Shown: positions 613 through 21,625, numbered from the stretch's first letter. The stretch is 55,469 bases of DNA from a virus (IMGVR_UViG_3300002488_000008:1-55469); one strand, 5' to 3'. Translations and numbers: made by a program. Notes: generated from the sequence alone by a model not told the origin.

Positions 613-774
613 GTGTCTTGGTTTAATTTACTTAAAAAAGACAACGTAGATGACGCTATTGATGAATTAGAGGAGATAAGTGAAGAATTTGACTTGTCTG
701 AACATGATTGGTCTTCAGTGGATGACGCTTCTGACTATCTTTTTGAGCATAAAGTGAAGGATGAAGAAGAATGA
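613..774 (+). CDS. Small acidic protein (53 aa) with MSW tag (MSWFNLLKK); not in ORF track
   Basis: GTG start after ggggttgg. Translates MSWFNLLKKDNVDDAIDELEEISEEF...EEE*. Its stop overlaps the next ATG (ATGA). Confidence 0.75.
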   Translation: MSWFNLLKKDNVDDAIDELEEISEEFDLSEHDWSSVDDASDYLFEHKVKDEEE

Positions 775-908
775 AGAGTAAAAAGCAAGTTTTAGTTGAC
801 GATTTATGGAAAGTATTAGCGGCTAACGTGTATTCTTTGTCTGAAGCCCAATTACGTGACTTAAAATATTACGTTTTAGAACAATCTAAGCAGATAAAGG
901 GGAGATAG
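771..908 (+). CDS. Small hypothetical protein (45 aa); not in ORF track
   Basis: MKSKKQVLVDDLWKVLAANVYSLSEAQLRDLKYYVLEQSKQIKGR* fills the gap exactly: ATGA overlap upstream, stop abuts ATG 909. Confidence 0.6.
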   Translation: MKSKKQVLVDDLWKVLAANVYSLSEAQLRDLKYYVLEQSKQIKGR

Positions 909-1214
909 ATGATGAATTGGCAAAATATTCTTTTAAAGCGTAATCCCTTTCTAGATAAGTGGACACGTTATTGTAAAGAATGTGCTAAAAAAGGATTATT
1001 CCTCGCATCAGGTAAAGACCCTCACTTATCGGCGGCAAATGAAGACTATTGTTATAGATGTAAAAAGAATACAGAATCGGGTTATACTAAGAATGATGAG
1101 ATTATCATTTTTGATAGGAAAGGACAACAAGGTGTAGAGAGGCAAAAGAAATATGACGAAGAAAGGTCTAAAAGGTTAGGTTCACTAAGAGAGTTCGATA
1201 CTGGCGAGAGGTAG
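909..1214 (+). CDS. Zn-ribbon-like protein with MNWQNILLK tag
   Basis: CKEC...CYRC pairs; SD aggggag; tag at N-terminus. Confidence 0.75.
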   Translation: MMNWQNILLKRNPFLDKWTRYCKECAKKGLFLASGKDPHLSAANEDYCYRCKKNTESGYTKNDEIIIFDRKGQQGVERQKKYDEERSKRLGSLREFDTGER

Positions 1215-1219
1215 ATTAA

Positions 1220-1828
1220 ATGAGTTGGTTCACTATAATAAAAAAAGACAATAGTGTTGATTATAAAATACCCGATGATGTAAAGATGTTCATGGCTGAC
1301 TTAGAAAGTGCAGAGCAAGAAAGTGAGTCTATTAAAGACCAAGTAGAACAAGCCGAATATCATAAACAAGAGGATGATTTAGAGGACTTAAAAGAAGAAG
1401 AATATGAATTACAGGCGGAAGTTTCTGAGTTAGGAGACAAATTAAAATCTCTTATAGATAAGTATAAGATAAAAGATATGGATTGGGCTGTTGAAGAACT
1501 AAAAGATTTTTCTCCAATATATTATCCGTTTAAATCCGGTGAGTCGGTTAATTATTTTCAAATAAATGATTCTTTAAAAGACAATTTTTATGTTGACCCT
1601 TATGAGGATAAAACTCCAAAAAGAGGAAATAAAAATAAGAAAATTGTTGCAAGACTAAATAGTTTTCAAAATCAACATTATGAGCAGTATGGTACTCCCG
1701 AAGAGAACCAAGATTTACACGAATTTATCAGTGCAGTTAGTAATGGTGATGTTAGCAACTTACGGAATAGATTTCCTTTTGCACATTTAGTTTTTGATGA
1801 AGCAGGTTTATTAGGTGATTTAGAATGA
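1220..1828 (+). CDS. Acidic coiled-coil hypothetical protein with MSWFTIIKK tag
   Basis: 202 aa ORF; SD gaggt; ATGA coupling to the next gene. Confidence 0.8.
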   Translation: MSWFTIIKKDNSVDYKIPDDVKMFMADLESAEQESESIKDQVEQAEYHKQEDDLEDLKEEEYELQAEVSELGDKLKSLIDKYKIKDMDWAVEELKDFSPIYYPFKSGESVNYFQINDSLKDNFYVDPYEDKTPKRGNKNKKIVARLNSFQNQHYEQYGTPEENQDLHEFISAVSNGDVSNLRNRFPFAHLVFDEAGLLGDLE

Positions 1829-2190
1829 GTTGGCAAGATATACTAAAAGGAAAATCCTATGGGCATAACTTGGAATTATCTTATGAGAATTCAATGTTTC
1901 TTACTAATTATTCAACTGACTCAACAGAAATTAACCCTATAACAGGAGACAAATTTGCTCTCGGTGAACCTGCTATTCCTAAAAGCGAATATCATGCGGC
2001 AAAAGTTCTACTCTATGTAATACAATTAGAAGAGGGAGAAGCAAAGGCTAAATCTAAACTTGCCTATTTACGAGATTCAGGTAATATTCCATATGATTAT
2101 GTTATGGATAAATACGATAGTGGAGAATACACTGTTAACCCTAAAAAATTACCAAACGGTGAAAAAATTGATTGGGATAGAGTTGAGTGA
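1825..2190 (+). CDS. Hypothetical protein with MSWQDILK tag
   Basis: 121 aa ORF; SD aggtga. Confidence 0.8.
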   Translation: MSWQDILKGKSYGHNLELSYENSMFLTNYSTDSTEINPITGDKFALGEPAIPKSEYHAAKVLLYVIQLEEGEAKAKSKLAYLRDSGNIPYDYVMDKYDSGEYTVNPKKLPNGEKIDWDRVE

Positions 2191-2195
2191 TTAAA

Positions 2196-2372
2196 ATGAG
2201 TTGGAAAGATATAATAAAAAATAAAAAAGATAAATGCCCTAAGTGTGGTACTCCATATAAATATCCTTCTCTTCCATTGTGTGCTAAGTGCGGTCATATT
2301 GCTAATGATAAGATGATGAATGAAGAAGACCATGCACAGTTAGAAGAAGAAACAGGTCGTAGTTTTAGGTGA
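2196..2372 (+). CDS. Small Zn-ribbon protein with MSWKDIIK tag
   Basis: CPKC...CAKC. Start moved to ATG 2196 because the GTG at 2187 is part of the gagtga SD. Confidence 0.75.
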   Translation: MSWKDIIKNKKDKCPKCGTPYKYPSLPLCAKCGHIANDKMMNEEDHAQLEEETGRSFR

Positions 2373-2377
2373 GTAAA

Positions 2378-2620
2378 ATGAGTTGGCAAGATATATTAAA
2401 AAACGAAATGGACGTTAAAACTCTAGAAGAAATTGCAACTGAATTAGAGAAGGCAGTTAAAGCACATGCTTCTCAAGCAAAAAGAATTAGAGATATGCTT
2501 GCAAAGACTTCTGCTTCATCTACGCCACAACCGCCAAGTGTAAGACCTCGAACAAGAGGAGATGATTTGTTGATTGCAAGAGCAAAACGTGCTTATGATA
2601 CACAACCAAAAAATAGGTGA
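2378..2620 (+). CDS. Hypothetical protein with MSWQDILK tag
   Basis: SD aggtga, then ATG 2378; 80 aa. Confidence 0.8.
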   Translation: MSWQDILKNEMDVKTLEEIATELEKAVKAHASQAKRIRDMLAKTSASSTPQPPSVRPRTRGDDLLIARAKRAYDTQPKNR

Positions 2621-2625
2621 TTAAT

Positions 2626-2889: not shown

Positions 2890-2898
2890 GTGATTAAT

Positions 2899-3039
2899 AT
2901 GTCTTGGGAAAATATACTAAAAGAAAAATTAGTTTGTCCTATGTGTGGTAAGAAGACTTTTGGCACAGATGTTAGGGCTAAAGGAAAATATAAAAGACAA
3001 CTAAAATGTAGTGAATGTGGACATACCCAAATGATGTGA
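2899..3039 (+). CDS. 46 aa Zn-ribbon microprotein with MSWENILK tag; not in ORF track
   Basis: MSWENILKEKLVCPMCGKKTFGTDVRAKGKYKRQLKCSECGHTQMM*; SD aggtga. Confidence 0.8.
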   Translation: MSWENILKEKLVCPMCGKKTFGTDVRAKGKYKRQLKCSECGHTQMM

Positions 3040-3044
3040 TTGAT

Positions 3045-3812: not shown

Positions 3813-3813
3813 A

Positions 3814-3915: not shown

Positions 3916-3998
3916 TGCCTAAAGGTTGGATAACTAATAAACCCATGAGAGAAGCATTTCTAAATTGGTTTGGTAAAACGGAAGAGGATTTTGAATGA
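3915..3998 (+). CDS. Putative microprotein (27 aa)
   Basis: MPKGWITNKPMREAFLNWFGKTEEDFE*; SD gaggtt; coupled on both sides (TAATG, ATGA). Confidence 0.5.
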   Translation: MPKGWITNKPMREAFLNWFGKTEEDFE

Positions 3999-4249
3999 GT
4001 TGGAAAGATATAGTAAAACAAGATTCTAAGGTATGGTATTTTGAATTATTAAGTCACATGATGAAATTAAATACAACATACGGAGAGCAATTAGATATAC
4101 TTCAAGACCTACGTGCCATAGCGAAAAGAAATCCAAATGATGTGGAGTTAGATAATGCGATAGAAGATATCTTAATTTTGCAGGATGAGAGTTTTGACGC
4201 AAGTGACCGATTGTTCCAATTAGTAAAGATGAGGGAAAAGTTACAATGA
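3995..4249 (+). CDS. Helical acidic hypothetical protein with MSWKDIVK tag
   Basis: 84 aa ORF with ATGA overlaps. Confidence 0.8.
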   Translation: MSWKDIVKQDSKVWYFELLSHMMKLNTTYGEQLDILQDLRAIAKRNPNDVELDNAIEDILILQDESFDASDRLFQLVKMREKLQ

Positions 4250-4449
4250 GTTGGTTTGAAGTTCTCAAAAAGAAAAAATCTAAGGTAAACTCCGCAGGTA
4301 ATTACACCAAGCCATCTATGCGTAAAAGAATTTTCAATAGGATAAAAGCAGGTAGTAAAGGAGGTGCGGCAGGTCAATGGTCTGCTAGAAAAGCACAGAT
4401 GTTGGCTCTAGCGTATAAGAAAGCAGGTGGTGGATATCGTGACAAATAA
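4246..4449 (+). CDS. Small basic protein (DUF5872-like N-half) with MSWFEVLK tag
   Basis: NYTKP-x-MRK...GSKGG-x-AGQWSARKAQ...YKKAGGGY motif, recognised from memory of marine phage proteins. Confidence 0.75.
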   Translation: MSWFEVLKKKKSKVNSAGNYTKPSMRKRIFNRIKAGSKGGAAGQWSARKAQMLALAYKKAGGGYRDK

Positions 4450-4705
4450 TTGGTTTGAAACATTGAAAGCCAAAACAAAAGGACAACAGGCTTTGACTGA
4501 ATGGACTAATGAAAAGTGGGATTATATTTCTCCTAAGTCTAAAAAGAAAGGAAGGTATGCACCAAAAGCAGTAGCCGATGCAATGACTAGTTCAGAAAAA
4601 GCATATGAAAACCGTAAAAAGAGAGAAGGTACTAGGAAAGGTAAGCAACATGTTCCGAGAGGAAAGTCTGCCAAGAAAAAATACAAGAGGGTTGAAGGAT
4701 TATGA
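4439..4705 (+). CDS. Small basic protein (DUF5872-like C-half) with NNWFETLK tag
   Basis: Q-x-x-L-x-x-WT-x-EKW...GRY-x-P...NR-x-KREG..GKQHV motif. GTG 4439 follows ggtggtgg. Confidence 0.7.
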   Translation: MTNNWFETLKAKTKGQQALTEWTNEKWDYISPKSKKKGRYAPKAVADAMTSSEKAYENRKKREGTRKGKQHVPRGKSAKKKYKRVEGL

Positions 4706-5103
4706 GTTGGCAAATAATATTGAAAGAACTCTCTTGTCCTCTACCAACTCAAGATTTAATGTTAAACACTAAAAATAGAGATGCCGCAGTTAAAAATCCT
4801 AATATTAGATATGGCCCACTAAATCTTAATGATGAAGATTATTGGGAAGACTATGCAAAGAAATGGAATACTACTGCTGAAGTAGCAAAAAAATCTAATT
4901 GTAGTAATTGTATTGCTTTTGATATTTCTCCAAGAATGGATGATTGTATGCCGTTATCTACTGATGATGATGGAAGATTAGGTTATTGTTGGATGCATGA
5001 TTTTAAATGTCATTCAGCAAGAACTTGTTTTACTTGGGCTAAAGGTGGCCCAATTGATGATGATGCTACATCAAAAGAAAATCAAATGAGGCGAGAAAAA
5101 TGA
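4702..5103 (+). CDS. Cys-rich (putative metal-binding) protein with MSWQIILK tag
   Basis: CSNC...GYC..H..KC....TC..W; 133 aa. Confidence 0.75.
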   Translation: MSWQIILKELSCPLPTQDLMLNTKNRDAAVKNPNIRYGPLNLNDEDYWEDYAKKWNTTAEVAKKSNCSNCIAFDISPRMDDCMPLSTDDDGRLGYCWMHDFKCHSARTCFTWAKGGPIDDDATSKENQMRREK

Positions 5104-5474
5104 GTTGGAAAGATATTCTATTGAAAGACACTAGAACTGCAACTAGAAGTGCATATTTGTGGGCTTTTAACGATGACGCAATTTATTTCCCAATAATACA
5201 ATTAATCAAACAAAAAGTAAAGGGGTATCTAGATTGGGGTTGGTCTAGAAAAGAAGTTATTGATGATATTTTAAATGCAATAGCAAAAGAGTTGCCCGAA
5301 ATGATGTCTCAACATAAAGGTTTTATGGATGACTTATTATCTCCCGTTAATGACAGAGATGAAATAGGAGATTCAATATCAGATGTTGATTGGTTAGAGG
5401 TTGCTGAAAATTTTAAGGAAGATATAGAAGAGGCTATGGAATTATATCCTGAAGAGGAGTCGTGGCAAAAATGA
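5100..5474 (+). CDS. Acidic hypothetical protein with MSWKDILLK tag
   Basis: 124 aa with ATGA overlaps on both sides. Confidence 0.8.
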   Translation: MSWKDILLKDTRTATRSAYLWAFNDDAIYFPIIQLIKQKVKGYLDWGWSRKEVIDDILNAIAKELPEMMSQHKGFMDDLLSPVNDRDEIGDSISDVDWLEVAENFKEDIEEAMELYPEEESWQK

Positions 5475-5806
5475 GTGATTGGTTTGATATACTTAAAAGA
5501 AAAAAACACCCTGCATTGAAGAGAGCAGGAGTTAGTGGTTTTAGTAAGCCAAAAAGAACTCCTGACCATAAGAGTAAATCTCACATTGTTGTAGTTAAAG
5601 ATGGTGAAAAAACTAAGACTATTAGGTTCGGTCAAAAGGGAGTTAAAACTAATCAAACTGCCGGACAAAGAAAGGCGTTTAAATCAAGACATTCTAAAAA
5701 TATAAAGAGAGGAAAATTTTCCGGTGCTTATTGGGCTAATAAAGTTAAATGGAGTCCTAAAAAAACAAAAGAAAAGAAAAATAAGAAGTGGAGAAAGGGT
5801 TCGTGA
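5471..5806 (+). CDS. Very basic protein with MSDWFDILK tag
   Basis: KSHIVVVKDG..KTIRFGQKG...FKSRH...AYWANKVKW pattern, common in marine viral proteins; SD gaggag. Confidence 0.75.
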   Translation: MSDWFDILKRKKHPALKRAGVSGFSKPKRTPDHKSKSHIVVVKDGEKTKTIRFGQKGVKTNQTAGQRKAFKSRHSKNIKRGKFSGAYWANKVKWSPKKTKEKKNKKWRKGS

Positions 5807-5856
5807 CAGTTAAGTGGTAATAATCATAAAGTTTATGTTCTAATAGTAGATGAGAG

Positions 5857-6063
5857 TTGATAAGTTTGGACGCTAATTCTGACAACTCTTGGTTTAACAT
5901 ATTAAGAATGTCGGGAGCAGTTACTACTACTTCAGCAGGAACATCACCCCTATTTAATAATAAAGCCATAAGGAGAAAAAAGTATGGCCGCAAAAAAACC
6001 GATAAAGAAAAAACAAATGCGAATAAAAACTACAAGCGGAGCAGTATTAATCGCAGATTATAA
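5857..6063 (+). CDS. Small basic hypothetical protein with SWFNILR tag variant
   Basis: Tag-like motif near the N-terminus. Start uncertain (TTG). Overlaps the next ORF by 80 nt. Confidence 0.5.
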   Translation: MISLDANSDNSWFNILRMSGAVTTTSAGTSPLFNNKAIRRKKYGRKKTDKEKTNANKNYKRSSINRRL

Positions 6064-7144
6064 AGGACTACCTTTTACTCAACTTTATAAAAATTGGAGA
6101 GAGGCTTGTAAAGATGTTACAAAAGAAGACATGTTTATGGAAGTTGCTAACGTTCCTACTTTGTTAGTAGCAATTCAGAAACATGGAGTAATCGCAAGAC
6201 AACGTTATAACAAAGAGTCTCTAGTTAGTCCTAAAAATCCAAATGAAGGTGGCGTAGAAATAATAAGACAATTAGATGCTATTGCTGGTAAACAAAATGA
6301 TTTATCTAAAGACCAATTACCTTTTTTACGAAAATTAGTTGCTGAATTAAAATCTCATACTATTGCGGGTTCTGAAACTAATCCTAGAAACATTGTGTTT
6401 AGTGACCCCATTATAAATGACGATGGATATATTATTGATGATGAAACTGTATATGGGCATTATAGAACAGTGAGATATAGATTATGGAGAAGTAATAAAA
6501 CAGACAAAGAAACTGGTGACTTTGAAGACGTTCCGGTTTGTCCTGAATCATGGTATGATGAAAGTCAAGATACTGCTGAACCCCCTATGTGGCAAGCACT
6601 TTATGCTCCTACAGCAAATAATAACCCATTGAAGTCTAAAGGATTATTACCTATTATGGAAGAATATTTAAAAGCAGTTGAAGATTTAACATATTCAGGA
6701 ACTAGAGAAAACCCACCAAGAATTACTAGTAAAACTATTGCTAAGGATTTATATGAATCATTTCCTAAAGTTAGAGAAGAAGTTGCTTCGTGGGTCAAAG
6801 AAGGAAGTCCTTTTTTGAAAACTGATTTAACTTTATATGGTAAACAAGCATCTGAATCTTTAAGAACTGTTAGAATTGAAGCAAGTACGGCGGAACATGT
6901 AGACCTTTTTGAAGAAATTTTAAAACTTCAAAATATAGATGTAGATAGTATTTACATAAATGTTACACCTCTACAATGTAAAAGAATGGCATTAATGAAT
7001 AAAGATTATGCTAATAGATTAAAGTCTAGAACATATGCACAAAAAGTTGCAGTTAATAGAAGGGCTCAATCTAAAAGGGCTAAAGAGGAAGTAGAAAGAA
7101 GAAGAGCAATGAGTCAAGGTAAAAAATCTAAAAAGAAAAAGTGA
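5984..7144 (+). CDS. Hypothetical protein (386 aa) with basic termini
   Basis: Long ORF; SD aggag; no recognised motif. Confidence 0.8.
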   Translation: MAAKKPIKKKQMRIKTTSGAVLIADYKGLPFTQLYKNWREACKDVTKEDMFMEVANVPTLLVAIQKHGVIARQRYNKESLVSPKNPNEGGVEIIRQLDAIAGKQNDLSKDQLPFLRKLVAELKSHTIAGSETNPRNIVFSDPIINDDGYIIDDETVYGHYRTVRYRLWRSNKTDKETGDFEDVPVCPESWYDESQDTAEPPMWQALYAPTANNNPLKSKGLLPIMEEYLKAVEDLTYSGTRENPPRITSKTIAKDLYESFPKVREEVASWVKEGSPFLKTDLTLYGKQASESLRTVRIEASTAEHVDLFEEILKLQNIDVDSIYINVTPLQCKRMALMNKDYANRLKSRTYAQKVAVNRRAQSKRAKEEVERRRAMSQGKKSKKKK

Positions 7145-7225: not shown

Positions 7226-7381
7226 ATGAAATGGTTTGATATAATTAGAAAAGAAGAAGAAGAAGAGATGACTGAAGAATCTCCATCTTCGCCACCGGAA
7301 ATACCTCCGACTGAAGATGAAGAAGAACAAGTAGTTCACTTTGTTGACCCTGCTGACCAAGATGAAATGAATGAAGTTTAG
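7226..7381 (+). CDS. Acidic Pro-rich microprotein (51 aa) with MKWFDIIRK tag; not in ORF track
   Basis: SD aggtga; MKWFDIIRKEEEEEMTEESPSSPPE...NEV*. Confidence 0.75.
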   Translation: MKWFDIIRKEEEEEMTEESPSSPPEIPPTEDEEEQVVHFVDPADQDEMNEV

Positions 7382-7389
7382 GTGATATT

Positions 7390-8046
7390 TTGATAACTAG
7401 AAAAAGATGTCCTCTTTGTAATCATGAGAATAGGGAATCCCTTGAATCTGAATTAGAAAATCTAATTATTACAACAGATGAGTTAGATGAGCAAATGAAT
7501 TGGCCTAGTGGAACTAGTTCTAAACATCAGAGAAATCATATGGAGGGTTTTGTAAATTCATCTAACCCTAGATGTTCTATTTGTGTTAGCCCCGATAGGG
7601 CAGAAATAGAAATGAAATTATATGAAGCACAAGTTACTCCTGCTGAAGTTGCACATGCACTAAATTGTAGTGAAGCACAAGTTATGAGACATTTAACAAA
7701 ACATTTGCAACCTATCGTACAACAGTCTGCGGCCAATATGATAGCAACAAAAGAAGTAGATGAGATTGATACACTTAGTAATAACATTGGTAGGTTAGAA
7801 GGAAAGATAGATGAATTATTTTTAGAAACTGATTTGAATCCTAAGTACATTGATTCGTTAACTAAGTTAGCAAAAGAAATTAGAGAGAGTTTAAAATACC
7901 TAATGGAGTTTAAAGGTAAATTAGTGCATAAGAGACAGGATACAATTATTGTCGCACAAATGCAAATTGTGCAAGAAGTGTTAGCACAAAATCATCCTCA
8001 AGTTTGGTTAGATATTAAGAATAAAATGCAGGAGAAGTTACAATGA
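7390..8046 (+). CDS. Putative terminase small subunit / DNA-binding protein with duplicated CxxC-HTH-H units
   Basis: Two repeats (CPLC...H...H and CSIC...H...H) with HTH-like segments, then a coiled coil. Lies upstream of TerL. Function is inferred. Confidence 0.5.
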   Translation: MITRKRCPLCNHENRESLESELENLIITTDELDEQMNWPSGTSSKHQRNHMEGFVNSSNPRCSICVSPDRAEIEMKLYEAQVTPAEVAHALNCSEAQVMRHLTKHLQPIVQQSAANMIATKEVDEIDTLSNNIGRLEGKIDELFLETDLNPKYIDSLTKLAKEIRESLKYLMEFKGKLVHKRQDTIIVAQMQIVQEVLAQNHPQVWLDIKNKMQEKLQ

Positions 8047-10229
8047 GTTGGCAAAATATTCTGAAAGCATCTGAAGATAAGTCATCTTTACCGCAGGAAA
8101 AAATAAATCGTAACGCACTGAAGTTTACAATCACACCCGTTAAACCATTAGTAAGAAGAAAAAATGAGTTAACTTACTTCTTAGCATCTTATTTAGATGA
8201 TGCTCAAACACTTAAAGAACTTATTTCTGAATGGAAAGAAAGCCAAAAAATGTTAGAGTATAAAAATACAACTGTAGGATTAAGACAGTTAAGTGCCGTT
8301 ATAAATAGAATTAAAAAATATTTTGAAAATATAATACCAATTGAACCAAACAGAAAGACTGAATCCGATGAACAGAAAACAGAAAGATTGGTAGAATTCT
8401 TTTCTAAATTACCTAATCCACCTTCTGCATCAGATATCACTACTATGGAAAACAATTTAGATATTTTAACAAAGTTTACAGAAAAAACCAAGTTAACTAG
8501 TAAACAATGGGATGAGAATAGAATAAATAAAGTAGTAAATCAAATTAAAGAAGCGGCTAGAAGAAGAAGTAGAAAGATAGACGAGGTAGATATATCTCAA
8601 CTAAATGCTAGTGATTTAGATGGATTACTTAATTATCTTTCAACTGATAAAAATATAAACAGAATGAAAAGACTTAGTAGGGCAAATAAAAAACAAATTA
8701 AAGATATTGTTCTTCAGATACAAAATAAAGATAAAAAGTTTATGGGTATTGGTTATGATACAACTGATATAACTTTAACACTACGTTCAGATTTTGATAC
8801 AGAAAAAGATGTATTATCTAATCTAAAGTTTGTTAACGAAGACGAACAGAAAACTGTAAAATTACCCGATTTTATTACTGAGGCACAGGGTCGTGCCTTA
8901 GCAGGGGGCTCTCCTTCAACTAAAATAACTAGAACTTCTTTAGGGAAATTATTTGAAATAGATGAATATTCAGAAAAAGATTTACCCACTTCTTTTGCTG
9001 AAAACATAACAGTTAATGATATTAATGAAGAGTTTATATTAAGATATTATGAACACGTACTACTTAAATTAAACAAGGGAAGAGATAAATTTTTACCTTA
9101 TATGAGTGGTAGTGAAAAATCAGATGCTAAAATTTTATTTGGAGTAAGCGGTACTAAATCAAGCAAACTAAATCCTACGTTAGTATATTTAATTAGAAAT
9201 TTTAACTTAAGACTAGGTAAAATAAGACTTTCAGAAATAACGGCACTTGAACTTGATAGTGTATTTAGAGGATTATCACAAGGAAAATATCAAGAAAGTC
9301 ATCCTCAATTAGTTACTGAATTCAAAAGATATGTTTCTACTGCTGACCCCGATATTGAAGAAGGAGAAAGAAAATTTACAGGTGTAAATAAGTTCTTAGA
9401 AAGACTTAGAGATGATGTAGATTTATATAAAGTTGTAGAAGAGTTAGCAAGAAAAGAATCTAAAAAAGAAAAACTTAGAGTGAGTGTAGAAATTGATGCA
9501 TTTATCAAAGAATATAAAGAAGACCTAAATAAAATAGGTGTTGATACTGCTAGGAAAAGAAGAAAAGCAGACAGATTTAGAGAAGAAAAACTTGTAGAAT
9601 TTAAAAAATTAGATGCTATAAAAGAACTAATGAAAAAAGGAAAATCACTGGAAAATGTAAAAAATAGAGAGTTTGAATATTTATTCGATAATTATGATAA
9701 AAACCAAGATAGATTTAGTTTACAATATGAACCCGAAGTAAATACTGAAAAGGAAACTATAAGATTACTTGATGAATTTAAAGATACCATAGAAAATTTC
9801 AAAATAAACACTATAACTTCTGCCATGATTAGAGAAGGAATGAAAGCGAAGAATCCAAATTTAATGTCAATGTTAATGCTTTGTTATGGATTATCAAAAG
9901 TATATGATGATAGAAAATTTGAAAAAAGTGTTTACTCTGCTTTAGAGACAATAATACACCTTAAGGAATATACAGGTAAAGATAAGAAAAAGAGAAAAGA
10001 GTACGAAGATAAGAAAGAAAAAATGGAAAAAAAATTCTCTGATTTTATGGAATTATTCAAAAAGAAATATAATGAATATCATATGAATTTTAAAAGAGAT
10101 TCGCAAGAAAAAATAGTAGAGGTTATAACTAAACCTATTTTACTAAGTAACACAGATGAACTTAGTGACAGAGAACCCGTCTTTGTAATACAAAATTTAC
10201 TTTCAAAAGGTAGAGAGGAGAAGAAGTAA
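8043..10229 (+). CDS. Large K/E-rich protein (728 aa) with MSWQNILK tag; candidate internal virion protein
   Basis: Long ORF, tag, helical composition. Confidence 0.8.
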   Translation: MSWQNILKASEDKSSLPQEKINRNALKFTITPVKPLVRRKNELTYFLASYLDDAQTLKELISEWKESQKMLEYKNTTVGLRQLSAVINRIKKYFENIIPIEPNRKTESDEQKTERLVEFFSKLPNPPSASDITTMENNLDILTKFTEKTKLTSKQWDENRINKVVNQIKEAARRRSRKIDEVDISQLNASDLDGLLNYLSTDKNINRMKRLSRANKKQIKDIVLQIQNKDKKFMGIGYDTTDITLTLRSDFDTEKDVLSNLKFVNEDEQKTVKLPDFITEAQGRALAGGSPSTKITRTSLGKLFEIDEYSEKDLPTSFAENITVNDINEEFILRYYEHVLLKLNKGRDKFLPYMSGSEKSDAKILFGVSGTKSSKLNPTLVYLIRNFNLRLGKIRLSEITALELDSVFRGLSQGKYQESHPQLVTEFKRYVSTADPDIEEGERKFTGVNKFLERLRDDVDLYKVVEELARKESKKEKLRVSVEIDAFIKEYKEDLNKIGVDTARKRRKADRFREEKLVEFKKLDAIKELMKKGKSLENVKNREFEYLFDNYDKNQDRFSLQYEPEVNTEKETIRLLDEFKDTIENFKINTITSAMIREGMKAKNPNLMSMLMLCYGLSKVYDDRKFEKSVYSALETIIHLKEYTGKDKKKRKEYEDKKEKMEKKFSDFMELFKKKYNEYHMNFKRDSQEKIVEVITKPILLSNTDELSDREPVFVIQNLLSKGREEKK

Positions 10230-13875: not shown

Positions 13876-15312
13876 ATGGAGTTAGATAATTTAGATTTAG
13901 TTTCTGCTATGGATATGGAGATATCAAAAAACTCCTTCCCTTATTTTTTTCAAAATGTATTAGGAATGATGTACCCTGCATATATGCACGAATGGTTAGA
14001 GTTGATGCAGACTACAGATAGAACAGTTATTATTTGTAGTAGGGATTTTGGCAAATCTGTTTTTATGCATAGTTGGGTAGTTTGGAATCTCGTCTTTCAA
14101 GAGCCACCATATCAAATGCTCTATATCTCATCTAACCAAAAGCAGACTCTTGTTCATATGAGAGAAATAGATAGAATGTTTAGTCATCCTGCACTTAAAA
14201 AATATAAACCAAATAGGGGTTGGGCTATTGGAAATATTCAGTTAACCAATGGTAATGCGATTTTAGAGCGTTCAGTTGGTTCTCAGATTAGAGGGCTTCA
14301 CCCTCAAGAAATAATTATTGATGACCCCTTGAAGGAATTTAGTATGGTGGGCATTCAAAAAGTTACAGATTGGTTCTTTGGAGATATGATACCTACATTA
14401 CATCATACTGCTAATTTAAGAATGATAGGTACTCCCTTTTCATATACTGATATTTTTACACAATTGGAAGAAAATGAGGCTTATAGTGTTAGAAAATATC
14501 CTTGCCTAAATTCTCTTAATGAATCTTTATGGCCGGAAAGATGGGGATATGAACAATTAATGCAAAGAAAAGCAGAAATTGGTTCTTTAAAATTTACAAG
14601 AGAATATCTTTGTGTTCCTATTTCTACGGGTACTTCTCTATTTAATCCTGAATTTGTAGATAAATGTAAATCAAGAGATTATGTTTTAAAATTAGGACAT
14701 AGAAAAGATAAAGGATACAAATATTATGTCGGTGTTGACCCTGCTATTTCTACTGATGGAGACTATAATGTAATTACTGTTATAGAAATGGATGATGAAA
14801 AAAATAAAACTATTGTGCATATAGATAGAGCAAAGAATGTAGACTTTAGGCAAAATATAGAAAAGATTAGATTAATAGGAGCAATTTTTGAACCGGAAGT
14901 TATTCTATTTGAAACAAATACTTTTGCTAAATCTTTTACTCAAGAATTAAGAAATATTTCAGATTTAAATGTTCAAGATTTTAATACCACAAGAAAAAAG
15001 AAACAAGAAATAATTCTTAGTTTACAGATGAATATTGAAAATGGTAAAATAAAATTTCCTTATGGAGATAATAATAGCAGACAGGTAACTAATCTTTTAA
15101 TTGAAGAATTGTCTATGTTTTCTATTACTCAAGCAGGTAAATTTGAAGGGGTCGGGGCTCATGATGACCTAGTAATGAGCCTTGCATTAGCCACCGCCGC
15201 CACACATAATTCTACAGAAGTGTTTATGTTGTTAGATGATATGGGCATCTTTGACGAACCTAAACAACAATTAGCCCGACCCGCTTCCGGCTTAATGGGG
15301 TTGAACTTTTAG
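13876..15312 (+). CDS. terL: Terminase large subunit
   Basis: Walker A SRDFGKS, IRG motif, Walker B IIIDD, coupling motif IGTP, nuclease VGVDPA and HDDLVMSLALA. Confidence 0.95.
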   Translation: MELDNLDLVSAMDMEISKNSFPYFFQNVLGMMYPAYMHEWLELMQTTDRTVIICSRDFGKSVFMHSWVVWNLVFQEPPYQMLYISSNQKQTLVHMREIDRMFSHPALKKYKPNRGWAIGNIQLTNGNAILERSVGSQIRGLHPQEIIIDDPLKEFSMVGIQKVTDWFFGDMIPTLHHTANLRMIGTPFSYTDIFTQLEENEAYSVRKYPCLNSLNESLWPERWGYEQLMQRKAEIGSLKFTREYLCVPISTGTSLFNPEFVDKCKSRDYVLKLGHRKDKGYKYYVGVDPAISTDGDYNVITVIEMDDEKNKTIVHIDRAKNVDFRQNIEKIRLIGAIFEPEVILFETNTFAKSFTQELRNISDLNVQDFNTTRKKKQEIILSLQMNIENGKIKFPYGDNNSRQVTNLLIEELSMFSITQAGKFEGVGAHDDLVMSLALATAATHNSTEVFMLLDDMGIFDEPKQQLARPASGLMGLNF

Positions 15313-15322: not shown

Positions 15323-16669
15323 ATGGCTAAAAAATTAAGTACAGAATTTGATGAATTAGCCAATATTGCTAGAGAAGATGAAAAGTTGGCAGAAGAAGAA
15401 CAACGAGTTATAGATGAATTAACAGTAGATAAAAGTGATTTCTTAAAATGGCTTGATAATCAACCTCTTTCTAATCATTTTGATATAGAAAAAAAATATG
15501 CTAAAAAATTTAATACTAATTTATCTCAAGCAAAAAAGGAACTAAATATTATTGTTAAAAAATATGAAGTAGAAGGACATGATGTACCAACAGTAGTCAA
15601 ACAATTAAAAAAGTATAGAAGAACACTAAAGGGAAGTGCAAAAGTAGATATTACAAATTCGATAGACAATCTAATAAAAGCATATTCTGACCATCTTAGC
15701 ACTAGTATTGATGATATATATTGGATTAAAAAATACAAGCCAATATTAAATGATATGGTATGTAGTGAAGATAATATTATAAAATTATCTTATGTTTCTG
15801 AGGAGTCTACAAGAAGAGAGATTATTGATACTCTTTGTAAATATTGGGAAGATAAATTACATATGAGGGATATGCCATATAATTCAGATTACGCTAAATT
15901 AAATAAGTCCATGTCTGTTTCAAAAAGAGAATTCAAATCCATATTGAGAAAATATATGACAAGTACGACAACTAAAGATATTATTAAACATGAAATATTA
16001 AAGGCAGTATGTGAAAATAACGGTATTTCTTCTAGACAAATACATGAAAGATTACCGACTAGATTATTTAAAAAAACTTCACCAACCATTATTTCTAAAA
16101 TGGCTAAAAGTATGGATATAACAAATGTAAATGGTGCATTCTATAAATTAAATGATGATATTAAAAAAGATATTTATGCCTATACTGCGGCCTTCATAGA
16201 TTCAGATGGGTATATTACTATGGATAAAAATTACAATCCTAGAGTTGGTTTGATAGCCACAGGAGAAAGAGGTAAAGCATTTATGATGGAAATGCATAAA
16301 TCTCTAGGTTGTGGTAGACTACATCTTGACCAAAAATCACCACAGGCTACTAGGTCTGTTCAAAGATTAAATTTCTATTCGGGTGATGATGTGGTAAAAA
16401 TATTAACAAAGTGTAGGCCACACTTTAAAATGAAAGGGGCTAACGCAGACATATTATTGGAACTAGTAAGAATGAAGAAATCGCATAAAAAGGCAGAATG
16501 GTATGAATCTAGAAGAGAGGAATTATTTAAATTAATGAAATATGAAAACCATAAAGACCACGTAGGGTATGACTTTTCTCAGTATGGAATAGACCCAACT
16601 ACTGTTGCTAAATTTCATGAAAATTCTAAAATGTTTGAAATGGATAGACTAGAAGGGATTGTGGTTTAA
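15323..16669 (+). CDS. LAGLIDADG-domain protein with long N-terminal extension
   Basis: Single LAGLIDADG helix YTAAFIDSDGYI at about aa 287, followed by a typical LAGLIDADG core. A wHTH-like segment lies upstream. Confidence 0.85.
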   Translation: MAKKLSTEFDELANIAREDEKLAEEEQRVIDELTVDKSDFLKWLDNQPLSNHFDIEKKYAKKFNTNLSQAKKELNIIVKKYEVEGHDVPTVVKQLKKYRRTLKGSAKVDITNSIDNLIKAYSDHLSTSIDDIYWIKKYKPILNDMVCSEDNIIKLSYVSEESTRREIIDTLCKYWEDKLHMRDMPYNSDYAKLNKSMSVSKREFKSILRKYMTSTTTKDIIKHEILKAVCENNGISSRQIHERLPTRLFKKTSPTIISKMAKSMDITNVNGAFYKLNDDIKKDIYAYTAAFIDSDGYITMDKNYNPRVGLIATGERGKAFMMEMHKSLGCGRLHLDQKSPQATRSVQRLNFYSGDDVVKILTKCRPHFKMKGANADILLELVRMKKSHKKAEWYESRREELFKLMKYENHKDHVGYDFSQYGIDPTTVAKFHENSKMFEMDRLEGIVV

Positions 16670-18336
16670 TGGCTGAAAGAAGAAGATTTAGTTTTACTAG
16701 TTTATTTAGAAATACTACACCTAAGCCACTAGACCGTAGTGTATATAATATTGGAATACAAGAAAAAGATACATCTTATTTATTGACTTCTCCGATAATA
16801 TATCATATTGCTCAACAATCTGTAATTGTTAGAACTTGTACTACCCAATTAAAACAAGAAGTGTTTAGGAGAGGATATATGTGGGAAGAAAAATTTGCAT
16901 TAAGATGTAATAAATGTGGAAAGGAATACAAATCTCCAGTCAAAGAATGTGGAGATTGTGGAAGTTTTGATTTTTCTAAGCCCGACCCTAAACAATTAAA
17001 GTATGCTAAAAAGATGTTAGGTGGTTATGTTAATAAATCTGAACAAATGTTTATTGATGTTTTAAAAGAAATGGAAGATGATTTGAACATTATGGATGAT
17101 GCATATTTAGTAATGGTTAAAGAATATTATTTAGATAACGACAATAATATAAAAATGCATAGAATAAAAGAAGTTTATCGAGGTGACCCTATTGGTATGC
17201 ATATTTATTCAGATGAGAAAGGAGAGAGAGGCAATACGGGATATACTTGTTTAAGACACAGAGATACTATTAGTCAAAGTTCTACAGGAACTTGTGAAAC
17301 ATGTGGGTGTAAATTATATCCAGTACACTTTGTTAACAGAACTAATGGGCAAGAACAGTATTTCATCAAGGGAGAAGTATTACATTTTAGTAAATATTCT
17401 CCAAGTAGAATATATGGCTTGTCTCCAATAATTACTTTATGGAATAACGTTACAACATTAATTGCTATGGAAAATTATGTTAATTCTTCTTATACAAAGG
17501 CAAGAATGCCAAAAGGAATTTTAGCAGTACAAACTAGAAATATGGATTCTATGAAGTCTTTTTGGAGAGGTGTTAAAGAAAAAATGGAAAAAGACCCACA
17601 CTTTATTCCAGTAATGGGAATTGAAGCAGAAGGTGGAAAGGGTTCTATTGAATGGGTAAAGTTCATGGATAGTCTAAAAGAAATGGATTATATGTCAGTT
17701 AAGGATGATTTAAGAGATAGAATATCTGCGTTTTATGGAGTTAGTAAAATCTTCATGGCAGACAACTCTGCTAGTGGTGGATTAAATAATGATGGTATGC
17801 AAATACTTGTAACTAATAGAGCGGTAGAAATGGCACAAACAATATGGAATAACTATGTATTCCCCTTTATGACAAAAGAATTTGGTATTCTTGATTGGGA
17901 ACTAAAATTACCACCATCAGAAGAAGAGGATGAGATTGCTAAATTAAGAAAGAGAGAGATAGAAGTAAATGTTGCGGCATCAATTAAAAACTTAGGGTTT
18001 GAAGTTGATATGGATGATGAAGGAAGGTTTACATTTTCTAAACCTCCTCCTGCACCTAAAGCAGAAGGAGAAGAAGAGGAAGAAGAAGAAATAGAATTAG
18101 ACCCTTATGCAGGTACAAACATAGACCAATCACAGTTAGGTCAAATGATGGAAGCAGGTACAAAACCTAGTATGGCAGAAGCAGGACAACCTGAAAAGGT
18201 AAAATCAGAAGATGAACCCCCTGCTACTAGAAATAAACCATCTATGTCAAGAGGGCCTGATAAAAGATTTAGTGGGCTACCCGCAGATGCAGGTAATCAA
18301 AATGTGGATAAAAGAACAGAGAGGCGGGTAGGTTGA
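16669..18336 (+). CDS. Portal protein (HK97-like) with Cys-rich insertions
   Basis: EVLHF..SPSRIYGLSPI, P.GIL and ISAFYGVSKIF portal motifs; located after TerL. Confidence 0.92.
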   Translation: MAERRRFSFTSLFRNTTPKPLDRSVYNIGIQEKDTSYLLTSPIIYHIAQQSVIVRTCTTQLKQEVFRRGYMWEEKFALRCNKCGKEYKSPVKECGDCGSFDFSKPDPKQLKYAKKMLGGYVNKSEQMFIDVLKEMEDDLNIMDDAYLVMVKEYYLDNDNNIKMHRIKEVYRGDPIGMHIYSDEKGERGNTGYTCLRHRDTISQSSTGTCETCGCKLYPVHFVNRTNGQEQYFIKGEVLHFSKYSPSRIYGLSPIITLWNNVTTLIAMENYVNSSYTKARMPKGILAVQTRNMDSMKSFWRGVKEKMEKDPHFIPVMGIEAEGGKGSIEWVKFMDSLKEMDYMSVKDDLRDRISAFYGVSKIFMADNSASGGLNNDGMQILVTNRAVEMAQTIWNNYVFPFMTKEFGILDWELKLPPSEEEDEIAKLRKREIEVNVAASIKNLGFEVDMDDEGRFTFSKPPPAPKAEGEEEEEEEIELDPYAGTNIDQSQLGQMMEAGTKPSMAEAGQPEKVKSEDEPPATRNKPSMSRGPDKRFSGLPADAGNQNVDKRTERRVG

Positions 18337-18437
18337 GTAATCTCGTTGAGTCTGCTAAAAAATGGAAAGAAGAAATAGATAGACTTAATGCAGAAACAGA
18401 TGAAAGAATTAGAAAATATTTGGAGGAAAAAAAATGA
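18333..18437 (+). CDS. Putative helical microprotein (34 aa); not in ORF track
   Basis: TTG start overlaps the portal stop. MSNLVESAKKWKEEIDRLNAETDERIRKYLEEKK* has an ATGA overlap with the next ORF. Confidence 0.55.
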   Translation: MSNLVESAKKWKEEIDRLNAETDERIRKYLEEKK

Positions 18438-18649
18438 GTGAAAAAGGTATAAGAGATATAGAAAAAGAAATGAAAAATGCAAGGATTGCAGAGAAGAGAC
18501 ACTATGATAGTTTAGTTACTAAAAATAGAGACTTTACTTTAGGTACTATTGCACCGGACACTAAAGCATACAAAGCACCGCCTAGTGTTCCCGATGTCAA
18601 TGTAATGCCAAAAAGAAAAAAAAGAAGTACTACTGAAAGTCCATTTTAA
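18434..18649 (+). CDS. Small basic hypothetical protein
   Basis: 71 aa; SD ggagg. Confidence 0.7.
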   Translation: MSEKGIRDIEKEMKNARIAEKRHYDSLVTKNRDFTLGTIAPDTKAYKAPPSVPDVNVMPKRKKRSTTESPF

Positions 18650-18662
18650 TTGAGGTGTTATT

Positions 18663-21272
18663 ATGGATTGGGAAGATATTCTAAAAGTTAGGGATAAATC
18701 TCAAGAAAAACTACAAGAATTTTTAGAACTACAAAGGCGTGGTCAAGGAAAAGGAATAACTTCAGCAATTGAACAAAAAAGAAAAGAGCAGGAATTAGAA
18801 CCAAGATTCAAAGATTTGGAAAGACTAGAAGAAGGTCTTGAAACTTTAGTAGCACCAATCACAAGGGAAATAAAAGATAAAGATGGTAAGTCAATTAAAG
18901 AAACAGTAAAAAATCCATTCCCAACTCCATCTTTAAGTGAAACACAAAAACGAAGGTCGGATATTAGACCTATTGAACCTAATGAACTTAAAATACTCAA
19001 TAAAAAATCTCTTTGGAAAGTAAATCGTAAAGTAAGAATAATCTTTGAAAGAACTTTAGAAGAGATAAAGACCTCAAATCCATCGTTTACACCAAAGTAT
19101 GATGTTAGAGATTTATCTCACGCTTCTTTATTTTTAATGATGTTATCTAAAATAGATTTAAATTTACCCCCACCAACAATGGATGGTAAAAAAGGTTCTA
19201 AATATAAACCTACTATAACAGAAAGTAAAATTCCATTTACTTCATTAGAGTCTGTTGATAAATATTTAAAAGACATTGATAAATCCATAAAAGAGATAGA
19301 AAAACAAATTTCAGTGTCATTAGGTAAAACAGTTGATATAAGTGAAGATTCTGACATTTTACAATTACTTAATCAAGTACGGGCAGATAAAGATGATGAT
19401 GAAATAAAACAACTCAAATTAAAAATAGAAAATTTAAAAACACTTAAACACACAATAAAAACATTATCAGAAAAAACAATTCCAACTCTTAAAAAGGACA
19501 AAGAGAAAATAGAACAAGAAAAGGATAAAAATAAAAAAGAAGAAGCACGTAAATCATATAGACTATATTGGCGTAAAACAATGAACATTGTTGATACAAC
19601 AATAGATGCGTTAGAAAGTAACTTTGGTAGTAATTATTTTCAAAATTTAATAACAAGCACAAAACAAACTCCACCTTCTACAACAATTAATACTTATTTT
19701 CCCGATAGTAAAAAAAATAAACAAACACGTTTGTTAGATATGCTAAAAAGTGAAAAGTATGTTATGGAAGTAGGTAAAAATAATAAATTTATTATGAAAG
19801 AAGATGACCTAAAAAAATTAATTGAAAAATTAGATAATATTAGATTTAATCCTAATCAAAATTTTGCCTTCTTACAACCAAAATATCAAAAGAGAAAGAA
19901 AGGTAAAAAATATTCTATATATGGTGCGACAGTTGAATCTAATCCACAATATAATCCTTTATTTAAAAGTCCTAATAAAGCATTAGAATCTACATTAGAT
20001 ATTCTAAATATTTTAGGTGGGAAATATTTTTCTAAACAACGCAAAGTACGCACTAAAGAGGATAAGAAAAAATACACTAAAACTGTATCTAATAATAGAC
20101 TAATACGAAGATTATTAGATGACTGGTCAGATAAAACTCTAGAAGAAGTAAAAAGTAGAGTAAGAGCAGTAGAACAAATAGGATTATTAGAACCTAAAAA
20201 TGTCACAAGAATTAATAAAATTTTATTTAGAGGAAATGTTGATAACTTTTTCGTAAAAGATGAACACCCATTCATAAATTATGATAGTGGATTTAGAAAT
20301 AATCTAAAACCTCAATGGGATGAAGATAAAAATTCTTGGGGAACAACAGATAGTGATGGTGATTGGGAAGATAGAATCATATTATATGATAATAAAAAAT
20401 CTACTGATATATGGAGAGAAATTGTCACTAAGTTGAACCTAAGTGAAAGTGGTTTAGAAGTATCTTCTACGAGAAAAGAAAGAAAAGATAGTGAATCAAA
20501 ATCTTTAAAATTAATATCTGAAATACTACAAGCATCAGATAAACTAAAAAATGTTAAAACAAGACAACAGATATTGTCTAAATATAAGAAATTAAAAGAA
20601 GTAATTCTTACTCCAAATAAAAATAGTTTATCTCCTTCTGATAAAAATATTGCTATTTCACAATTAAAAAATGAAGATAGATTAATATCAGATATGTATA
20701 GTTTTATGACAACCTTTGATGATGTATTAGAATTAATGGAAGAAAATATTCCTTCTGATTCTGCTACTTTAAGAGAAGCCCTTTTAGAAGGAGAGGAAAA
20801 TTGGGCAGTAGGTGTTACTGGACGATTACAAGGAACAAATAGAATATTGGTATCGTTTATTGAACCCTTAGAATTTTTATATCAGATTTTATTTTCATTA
20901 GGTAGAACAGTTGATATTGAAGATTCTGACATTTTTCAAATTATTAAAAATCAAAAAATGGATTTAGATATTAGTGAACAATTAAAAGAAATATCTGAAC
21001 TAGAAAAGAGATTGAAAGAGCAAAAGATAGATACTGAAAAAATAGAAGAATATGAAAAATTATTAGAAACTCAAAAGAAATCTATAGAAATTTTCAAAAA
21101 TACAGATTTTGTTCGCAATCAAGATGTAGAAAATGGTATAGAAGAACTATTAGAAAGAGATGATATGGTTAAGAAAAGTTATGAGTTTGAAGAATTAACC
21201 TTAGATGAACAAATAGCAAAGGCTTTAAGAAAAGTAAAGCGTAAGAAAGCATTATTGGAGAGGAGTTTATGA
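18663..21272 (+). CDS. Large K/E-rich protein (869 aa) with MDWEDILK tag; candidate internal virion protein
   Basis: SD gaggtg; tag; coiled-coil composition. Confidence 0.8.
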   Translation: MDWEDILKVRDKSQEKLQEFLELQRRGQGKGITSAIEQKRKEQELEPRFKDLERLEEGLETLVAPITREIKDKDGKSIKETVKNPFPTPSLSETQKRRSDIRPIEPNELKILNKKSLWKVNRKVRIIFERTLEEIKTSNPSFTPKYDVRDLSHASLFLMMLSKIDLNLPPPTMDGKKGSKYKPTITESKIPFTSLESVDKYLKDIDKSIKEIEKQISVSLGKTVDISEDSDILQLLNQVRADKDDDEIKQLKLKIENLKTLKHTIKTLSEKTIPTLKKDKEKIEQEKDKNKKEEARKSYRLYWRKTMNIVDTTIDALESNFGSNYFQNLITSTKQTPPSTTINTYFPDSKKNKQTRLLDMLKSEKYVMEVGKNNKFIMKEDDLKKLIEKLDNIRFNPNQNFAFLQPKYQKRKKGKKYSIYGATVESNPQYNPLFKSPNKALESTLDILNILGGKYFSKQRKVRTKEDKKKYTKTVSNNRLIRRLLDDWSDKTLEEVKSRVRAVEQIGLLEPKNVTRINKILFRGNVDNFFVKDEHPFINYDSGFRNNLKPQWDEDKNSWGTTDSDGDWEDRIILYDNKKSTDIWREIVTKLNLSESGLEVSSTRKERKDSESKSLKLISEILQASDKLKNVKTRQQILSKYKKLKEVILTPNKNSLSPSDKNIAISQLKNEDRLISDMYSFMTTFDDVLELMEENIPSDSATLREALLEGEENWAVGVTGRLQGTNRILVSFIEPLEFLYQILFSLGRTVDIEDSDIFQIIKNQKMDLDISEQLKEISELEKRLKEQKIDTEKIEEYEKLLETQKKSIEIFKNTDFVRNQDVENGIEELLERDDMVKKSYEFEELTLDEQIAKALRKVKRKKALLERSL

Positions 21273-21625
21273 GTTGGGAAAATATTCTCAAAAAAGATGA
21301 ACCCTCATTATTTAGTTTAGAAGATGCTATAGGTAAGACTGATTCTAAAAGAAGAAAGAAACTAAAAAAAGTTCTTCAAGCAAGTGAGCCTACAGAATTT
21401 TTTGGTCAAGAAATGACAAAACTCACAGAACTAATAGATGAGTTAAAAGATTTAGATTTAGTAAAGACAGATAAAAAATTAACTAAAGAGATGAAAGGGT
21501 TTGAAGAAAAGAATTTAGATATTGTTGCTACGGCCTCAAAATTAAGAAAGGATTATGAAACATTATACAATCAATTACGTGGATTAGTATATCCAAAAAG
21601 TAAAGGGAAATTAGGAGACAAATAA
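21269..21625 (+). CDS. Coiled-coil protein with MSWENILKK tag
   Basis: 118 aa; SD gaggag; ATGA overlap. Confidence 0.8.
   Translation: MSWENILKKDEPSLFSLEDAIGKTDSKRRKKLKKVLQASEPTEFFGQEMTKLTELIDELKDLDLVKTDKKLTKEMKGFEEKNLDIVATASKLRKDYETLYNQLRGLVYPKSKGKLGDK

Follow-up and report, generated by a model that had tools for sequence, protein, structure and literature searches.

An eight-residue N-terminal peptide on unrelated proteins of a magrovirus as a candidate procapsid-docking tag

Tagged genes of the window

The contig IMGVR_UViG_3300002488_000008, analysed here over its whole length of 55,469 bp and referred to as the window, is a fragment of a magrovirus, one of the tailed viruses that infect marine Poseidoniales archaea, and contains no replication module. 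Nearly every gene lies on the + strand, and 19 open reading frames (ORFs) between positions 613 and 21,625 carry at or near their N-terminus the same short peptide, M-[S]-W-x-[D/N/E]-[I/V]-[L/I/V]-K, which we call the tag. A preliminary description of this DNA had listed these N-termini and proposed that they label proteins for loading into the capsid; all 19 are present where it had placed them. Gene calls were simple ORF calls, and all of the tagged ORFs are on the + strand.

The series opens with an acidic protein of 53 amino acids (aa) at 613–774, reading (GTG)-SWFNLLK, and a 100-aa protein at 912–1214 (MNWQNILLK) with 4 Cys and a weak Zn-ribbon match below cut-off. They are followed by an acidic 202-aa protein (1220–1828, MSWFTIIK), a 121-aa protein whose start overlaps the upstream stop as ATGA (1825–2190, MSWQDILK), a 58-aa protein with 4 Cys (2196–2372, MSWKDIIK), two basic proteins of 80 aa (2378–2620, MSWQDILK) and 87 aa (2626–2889, MSWFDIIK), the latter also with 4 Cys, and a 46-aa protein with 4 Cys in which the Ser of MSWENILK is written TCT (2899–3039). 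A further run comprises an acidic protein of 84 aa (3995–4249, MSWKDIVK), a very basic one of 67 aa (4246–4449, MSWFEVLK), a basic one reading (GTG)-TNNWFETLK (4439–4705), a 133-aa protein with 7 Cys (4702–5103, MSWQIILK), an acidic protein of 124 aa (5100–5474, MSWKDILLK) and a very basic protein of 111 aa (5471–5806, MSDWFDILK). A very acidic 51-aa protein (7226–7381, MKWFDIIR) precedes two large tagged proteins that match no family and for which an ESM Atlas search gave no usable match, one of 728 aa (8043–10229, MSWQNILK) and one of 869 aa immediately 3' of the portal gene (18663–21272, MDWEDILK). At the position equivalent to the former, the relative G003 codes for a tagged protein of 795 aa. 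The last tagged ORF, p118, codes for 118 aa (21269–21625, MSWENILK). In the more divergent relative G007, the C-terminus of a tagged 794-aa protein (16995–19376) matches that of p118 (..LRKDYE.LY..L...IYPK), so that some relatives have p118 and the large post-portal protein joined in one chain.

The tag is directly preceded by ATG in 16 of these ORFs and by GTG at 613, GTG is the only start at 4439, and the ORF at 5857–6063 starts with TTG, its tag (..NSWFNILR) standing 11 codons past that start. The latter ORF has no nearby ATG and overlaps, in another frame, the first 80 nucleotides of a 386-aa gene (5984–7144), an arrangement also found in G003 (about 77058). A programmed frameshift fusing the two was considered and rejected, the 386-aa gene having its own AAGGAG-ATG start.

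The motif on these ORFs is confirmed to be real and strong. The peptide expression W..[ILVM][ILVM]{1,2}[KR] has 30 matches in the six frames of the window, comprising 18 of the listed N-termini, one site internal to a real gene (the major capsid protein (MCP) gene, at 27338) and 11 sites in short spurious frames; the 19th N-terminus, WFETLK at 4439, matches only if Thr is allowed. The fixed-length DNA form ATGNNNTGGNNNNNNRTHNTNAAR has 12 matches, all on the + strand and all at listed starts, against 0.03 expected and a maximum of 1 in 100 dinucleotide-preserving shuffles.

Extent, distribution and origin of the tag

To describe the tag across its lineage, we aligned 153 distinct tagged N-termini from the window and fetched relatives, using the anchor M-x-W-x-x-[ILVMT]-[ILVM] and leaving position 8 free. 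The resulting logo reads M1, S2 (115/153), W3, E/Q/F/K4, D/N/E5, I/V6, L/I/V7 and K8 (142/153). Information content is 2.0–4.3 bits at positions 1–8, with 3.8 bits at K8, then falls to 0.87 bits at position 9 and to 0.3–0.7 bits beyond it, which agrees with the earlier remark that similarity stops at the Lys. The p118 family displays the same boundary: M1, W3 and K8 are invariant in 18 aligned sequences, a linker of variable length follows the tag, and the indels fall directly after K8.

The preliminary description had also argued, from the use of both AGT and TCT for Ser2, that selection acts on the peptide. The argument is weak, since Ser2 is AGT in 97% of the 115 cases against a background of 33% and the alternation therefore says little, whereas the conclusion finds support elsewhere in the 153 N-termini, Leu7 being written with all six codons and Asp5, Val6 and Lys8 with codons at genome background ratios. 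At the nucleotide level, 136 of the 153 tagged starts read ATGA, the TGA being the stop codon of the upstream gene in six window genes, and a G-rich Shine-Dalgarno-like block occupies positions -12 to -7. A is the commonest base at +4 in untagged ATG-start genes too (84/177), which makes ATGA common in these genomes whether or not a gene is tagged. Overall, selection is mostly on the peptide, and codon 2 bears a further constraint at the nucleotide level. We also observed that Leu7 avoids TTA (10% versus 58% in the background) and favours CTA, and that Ile6 favours ATA, biases that may keep the beginning of the gene free of a long A/T run or of a TATA-like sequence.

Tagged genes are confined to a region upstream of or inside the head module, both in the window and in three complete relatives, and none is found in the replication blocks of the complete relatives. 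In the window, 18 of the 31 called genes upstream of the protease gene are tagged and none of the 22 from the protease onward (Fisher p = 3.7e-6), which bears out the statement that no neck or tail gene carries the peptide; the ORF at 5857 is not among the called genes because it overlaps another one. In G003, a complete genome of 96 kb with direct terminal repeats, 12 of 61 genes in the structural-strand block are tagged, all of them between the MCP gene and the far upstream end of this block; the two + strand blocks, with the PolB genes in one of them, have no tagged gene among 60 (p = 2.7e-4). The corresponding figures for G001 are 8 of 55 and 0 of 65 (p = 1.4e-3). G007, also complete, has about 25 tagged ORFs at 82.7–95.2 kb and 0–17 kb on the structural strand, all upstream of the MCP gene (24.3 kb) and none in the opposite-strand block or the tail region. 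About nine of the tagged ORFs of G007 (82.7–89.6 kb, locus L230, and position 17, locus L226) are paralogues with bodies of 165–806 aa that share a longer leader, W-x-D-I-L-K-N-I-Q-I-S-S-Q-R-T-S-S-K, and G001 has a similar three-copy family (W-F-x-I-L-K-N-E-M-R..LPKFKVKP).

The tag is lineage-wide. A scan of IMG/VR with one DNA spelling of it found at least 119 stretches, and among 77 loci scanned (L104–L180), 66 hold at least two tagged ORFs and one holds 17 in 14 kb, counts that overstate the number of independent events because these relatives share ancestry. Which genes are tagged varies strongly from one genome to another. Among prokaryote genomes (596 Gb), the DNA pattern has 36 scattered single matches in unrelated taxa, where a few tens are estimated by chance, and none in Poseidoniales, which is a weak test for host proteins as their codon usage differs. 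One tagged IMG/VR contig of 185 kb (G006, 184,733 bp, behind locus L124) was considered as a larger virus and rejected: it has two MCP genes ~91 kb apart, and, although rated 100% complete, the record probably joins two magrovirus genomes as a concatemer or a chimeric assembly.

Behind the tag, the proteins show no relationship to one another. None of the 171 pairs of the 19 tagged bodies matches by BLAST at E<0.01 (the best has 0.055), their isoelectric points range from 4.1 to 11.7 and five of them have at least 4 Cys, so the view that the bodies are unrelated and chemically diverse is upheld. Most have nothing above Pfam or PHROGs cut-offs; the three that do belong to families of unknown function (phrog_17747, phrog_14910 and phrog_7595), and their matches begin past the tag. 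The body at 5471 also matches phrog_220, "minor head protein and DNA pilot" (E = 9.2e-5), a weak match on which we do not rely.

Three bodies have bacteriophage homologues that lack the tag. The body at 4246–4449 is 73% identical to gp42 of Pelagibacter phage HTVC033P, residue 1 of which aligns with window residue 7; that at 4439–4705 is 39% identical to gp39 of the same phage, whose residue 2 aligns just past the tag; and that at 5471–5806 is 65% identical to gp31 of Lentibacter phage ICBM2, whose residue 1 aligns with window residue 8. As these three homologues start where the tag ends, the tag is an add-on to the bodies. For the ORF at 4702–5103, the best phage match (H69) begins at residue 11 and the other six begin between residues 1 and 36. 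In the phages, the genes for these homologues stand at the end of the late or lysis region together with genes for more small basic proteins. Small, very basic proteins of this virus are 39–73% identical to proteins of pelagiphages, roseophages, cyanophages and the SAR116 phage HMO-2011; the loci concerned include, besides the three window ORFs, 6013–6279 in L101 and 6001–6180 and 6576–6824 in L102. Such similarities point to gene flow between marine bacteriophages and archaeal viruses. The searched passages of the cobavirus paper (PMC6775973) contain no virion proteomics of the untagged phage homologues.

Core copies on the scaffold and the virus that carries them

The core of the tag recurs at the C-termini of two head-module proteins, an observation that is new here. 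The prohead protease gene (24873–26087, + strand) codes for a protease-scaffold fusion with an N-terminal Peptidase_S78 domain (residues 26–175, E = 1.4e-9), a variable acidic linker, a conserved helical scaffold region and an end of the form ...LPEGFPT...M-S-W-G-D-I-H-x-L.... The copy in the window, MSWGDIHTLV (26043–26072, + strand), begins 14 residues before the end of the protein. All 61 orthologues recovered from MCP loci have the core [MV]-[ST]-W-x-[DE]-[ILV]-H 13–15 residues from the C-terminus, and the tail of G007 reads MSWDEINELV. The second protein, p77, is a small head-module protein of 77 aa (21709–21942, + strand) with the copy MDWSQIHDTV (21895–21924, + strand), which begins 15 residues before its end and needs a slightly wider pattern to be matched; its C-terminal core is present in 50 of 50 relatives recovered by BLAST and also in G007. 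From composition, the core would be expected 0.16 times in the window proteome as a whole and ~1.4e-4 times in the last 15–20 residues of a given protein; apart from the tags, the window proteome matches the core only at the scaffold tail and in one weak internal site. In P22 and HK97, it is the C-terminus of scaffolding proteins and prohead proteases that holds them inside the shell. Since the C-terminus of the scaffold is expected to contact the shell, the presence of the core there strengthens the capsid-loading reading.

The protease also bears on the possible fate of the tag. HK97 gp4 belongs to the same Pfam family (E = 4.9e-30), and the HK97 capsid protein has Lys103 followed by Ser104, the solved mature chains beginning at residue 104, so that an enzyme of the S78 family can cut after Lys. 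By analogy, cleavage of the tag after K8 is possible. Two other tag-like sites were rejected: NALLK in the MCP (residues 23–27, with N23, L25 and K27 invariant) as a maturation site, since [ILV][ILV]K is too common in the proteome, and FSILK near the N-terminus of the protease, which is probably a structural strand.

In the AlphaFold2 model of p118 (mean predicted local distance difference test (pLDDT) score of 76), tag residues 3–9 form a short helix at pLDDT <50, with a break between it and the confident helical body, a prediction that fits a free docking peptide on a linker. The model of the protease-scaffold fusion is poor (mean pLDDT 47) and was not used as evidence; in it, the C-terminal motif is a short helix (residues 390–398, pLDDT about 60) preceded by a non-helical stretch. 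Complex prediction of the MCP with tagged p118 scored 0.00 in two runs made without controls and is counted neither way.

The remaining genes of the window identify the virus. The terminase large subunit (13876–15312) and the portal protein (16669–18336, with a Phage_portal match slightly under the Pfam cut-off) are untagged and on the + strand, as are the genes for an ATP-dependent DNA ligase domain (22223–24841; PF01068, E = 1.4e-27), located between portal and protease, and for the MCP (26090–27505), which has an HK97-like SU10_MCP match. A tail-tube-like protein and very large fibre-like proteins are also coded. The nearest named MCPs are those of haloarchaeal tailed viruses (23–26% identity), tblastn matching only haloviruses and methanogen-associated viruses, and a PDB profile search with the MCP alignment gave 0 matches. 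IMG/VR holds at least 599 relatives of this MCP; the best 80 are 68–91% identical, several of them on contigs of 86–98 kb, and PolB is split into two adjacent pieces in all five relatives of this size that were searched. Magroviruses, which infect Marine Group II (Poseidoniales), have been described with a ligase within the structural module, a nuclease gene among the head genes, halovirus-like head genes, genomes of ~100 kb with a full replication module and, in group B1, a split PolB (PMC5434244). The assignment of the window to them follows from the ligase in the structural module, the halovirus-like head genes and, in its relatives, the ~100-kb genome size and the split PolB.

A few further genes deserve mention. 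Between terminase and portal, a 448-aa ORF (15323–16669) has a LAGLIDADG-like motif by eye (..AAFIDSDGYI..), as expected in magroviruses, with nothing at E <= 0.01 in a Pfam search. The N-terminal third of the portal protein contains, also by eye, Cys-x2-Cys pairs resembling a Zn-ribbon insertion, and the portal region of G003 is split into three separate ORFs (about 64.6–66.3 kb), perhaps through frameshifts or errors of assembly. A 223-aa P-loop protein (29320–29991), coded between head and tail genes and unusual in a structural module, has sub-cut-off Pfam matches to the small-GTPase families SRPRB, MMR_HSR1 and Arf.

Possible functions of the tag

The closest parallel to the tag is the capsid-targeting sequence (CTS) of bacteriophage T4, carried by IPI, IPII, IPIII and Alt. 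There, encapsidation needs no more than the first 10 residues, of which 4 and 7 (i, i+3) serve for targeting and 8 and 10 for processing (PMC9026906); the CTS is cut off by the prohead protease (PMC9026906, PMC3012670, PMC7411985), and T4-related phages have other basic proteins with CTS-like leaders (PMC9026906, PMC3012670). In the T4 record, ipII and ipIII begin MKTYQEFIAE and ipI begins MKTFKEF. As in T4, a short N-terminal peptide is common here to unrelated, often basic proteins coded with or near head genes, and the cargo sets are diverse and poorly conserved among relatives. The spacing aromatic-x-acidic-hydrophobic-hydrophobic is also shared (Y4-Q-E-F7-I and W3-Q-D-I6-L), a likeness of pattern and not homology. 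When homology to the CTS and gp21 was tested, the magrovirus protease matched Peptidase_S78 only and the tag shared the spacing without the sequence, so that any likeness of the tag to the CTS is one of function and not of descent. In contrast to T4, where gp21 belongs to a different protease family, the protease is of the S78 (HK97) type and fused to the scaffold, each genome has 10 to about 25 tagged genes, far more than in T4, the core is also found at the C-termini of the scaffold and p77, the host is an archaeon, and both targeting and cleavage are predicted from sequence.

Other systems resemble this one in part. A conserved C-terminal tail on an S78 protease-scaffold protein recalls HK97-type and giant-phage prohead proteases and phage scaffolds, and the C-terminal propeptide of the SPN3US protease has been proposed to target it into the prohead (PMC7411985). 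Those tails serve the protease or scaffold alone, whereas the magrovirus core is also found at the N-termini of many other proteins. In phage P1, an N-terminal segment of DarB, of which 30 residues suffice, sends this large anti-restriction protein and a reporter into the capsid, and that study reports no consensus among the N-termini of the Dar proteins (PMC9024508), unlike the sharp consensus found here on many proteins. The MCP of the window, being HK97-like, also invites comparison with encapsulins. In these, a short peptide docks diverse cargo inside an HK97-fold shell, although it is mostly C-terminal, has another consensus and stays uncleaved; here, the tag is N-terminal on the cargo candidates and the locus codes for terminase, portal and tail genes, the shell being a DNA-packaging virus head, unlike the DNA-free compartment of an encapsulin. 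Nor does the tag resemble a Sec, Tat or class III signal peptide, with its hydrophobic core of at least 10 residues or its twin-Arg or prepilin motif, as it consists of eight conserved residues with 2–3 hydrophobic positions, followed by variable charged residues.

We lean slightly towards the reading that the tag is a portable procapsid-docking peptide that copies the scaffold tail. The eight residues at the N-terminus would bring unrelated proteins into the assembling procapsid, most likely by binding where the C-terminal tail of the protease-scaffold fusion of this virus binds, and the candidate receptor would probably be the inner face or the N-terminal arm of the MCP. The S78 prohead protease may then remove the tag after Lys8, and the cargo would stay in the virion and enter the host with the DNA. 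The capsid-targeting label of the preliminary description gains support that is real, if circumstantial, from the confinement to the head module, the add-on character of the tag, the core on the scaffold, the S78 gene and the T4-like spacing; its Ser-codon argument is weak.

Several points weigh against this reading. That tagged proteins are in the particles, and that their tag is cleaved, is what we infer from sequence, and the MCP as receptor is a guess; the T4 CTS is described as binding the scaffolding core and not the shell (PMC3012670, PMC7411985). With 10–25 species per genome, among them the 728-aa and 869-aa proteins, the cargo would be a larger set than that of T4, and it would include several small Cys4 or basic proteins of unassigned role. 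The terminase genes lie downstream of the small tagged genes, which could be early genes that merely share the strand. The head module of the related haloarchaeal virus HVTV-1, 15 coding sequences inspected by eye, has no comparable N-terminal motif, so the system is not general to this capsid lineage. The preference for AGT and ATGA denotes some DNA- or RNA-level constraint at codon 2. At position 7 the tags have L/I/V, in contrast to H (or N, R) at the C-terminal sites, so that the two forms need not share a binding site. Finally, across 45 loci or genomes the scaffold variants (S/T2 and I/V6) do not covary with the tag variants (T in 3/39 versus 10/143; V in 6/39 versus 20/136), a weak counterpoint as these substitutions are conservative.

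A role of the motif solely as a recognition or cleavage site, or as a docking exosite, for the S78 prohead protease seems to us rather unlikely. The tag would then be a removable propeptide controlling activity or stability, any encapsidation would come from riding on the protease, and autoprocessing would take place at the C-terminal copy on the scaffold. The fusion of the protease to a protein that bears this copy would suit such a role, as would the sharp end of conservation at Lys8, which resembles a P1 position, the cut after Lys103 made in HK97 with a protease of the same Pfam family, and the combination of targeting and processing determinants within the same 10 residues of the T4 proteins (PMC9026906). 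However, the C-terminal copies have His7 and no conserved Lys8, so that a common cleavage site is not evident, and [ILV][ILV]K is too common in a Lys-rich proteome to provide specificity; moreover, such a role overlaps with procapsid docking rather than excluding it. We consider it similarly improbable that the tag is a short linear motif with no part in loading, recognised by another common partner such as the portal, a viral or host chaperone or a host factor. Some magroviruses do code for thermosome genes (PMC5434244), the predicted short amphipathic helix at a flexible terminus is typical of docking motifs, the motif is found at either terminus, and the MCP is only a candidate receptor for the tag. 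The head-proximal confinement of the tagged genes and the presence of the core on the scaffold nevertheless point to head assembly, and the prokaryote genome scan, weak as it is, found scattered matches and none in Poseidoniales.

Explanations that dispense with a protein partner of this kind fare worse. It is very unlikely that the peptide is the by-product of a DNA- or RNA-level feature, be it a cassette for translation initiation or start-stop coupling or a recombination boundary that shuffles gene cassettes. The codon usage at Ser2 and Leu7, the ATGA starts, the Shine-Dalgarno-like block and the strong differences in tagged-gene sets among genomes would agree with such a feature, but Leu7 draws its six codons from two families, Asp, Val and Lys follow background codon usage, the amino acids Trp3 and Lys8 hardly vary, A at +4 is frequent in untagged genes as well, and two proteins have the core at their C-terminus, a long way from a start codon. 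We give as little credit to a membrane-binding amphipathic helix or a secretion or sorting signal: a short helix would have W, I and L on the same side and Lys after them, but the eight residues contain no hydrophobic core and no twin-Arg or prepilin-like motif, many of the bodies are highly charged and soluble-looking, and the motif is present on an internal scaffold protein.

Extending the procapsid-docking reading, we tentatively envisage a magrovirus payload system, a scenario that is plausible and that we would stop short of calling probable. The docking tail of the scaffold would have been copied as an N-terminal zip code onto 10–25 unrelated proteins per genome, including small basic ones captured from marine bacteriophages and then tagged; these proteins would be packed in the head, freed after Lys8 and delivered with the DNA to the archaeal host as a first wave of effectors. 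We found no published description of the tag in the text of the magrovirus papers searched (PMC5434244, PMC11706807, PMC10160649), and a library search on capsid targeting in archaeal viruses gave no match, the supplementary protein-cluster tables, which could mention the tag, being outside this scope. If the scenario is true, the tag would be the first capsid-targeting code in an archaeal virus, and one whose origin, by mimicry of the scaffold tail, can be read in the sequence; copying of the scaffold's own docking tail is thereby suggested as an origin of capsid-targeting peptides. Magroviruses are among the most abundant archaeal viruses of the surface ocean. A sequence rule would then predict the internal, and possibly injected, proteome of an abundant group of uncultured archaeal viruses, and dozens of proteins per genome now called "hypothetical" would become candidates for virion cargo or for factors of host takeover. 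The very short tag, SW-x-D-I-L-K, would also be a candidate encapsidation handle for HK97-type procapsids. Small basic proteins, untagged in pelagiphages and roseophages and tagged here, would link the gene pools of bacteriophages and archaeal viruses.

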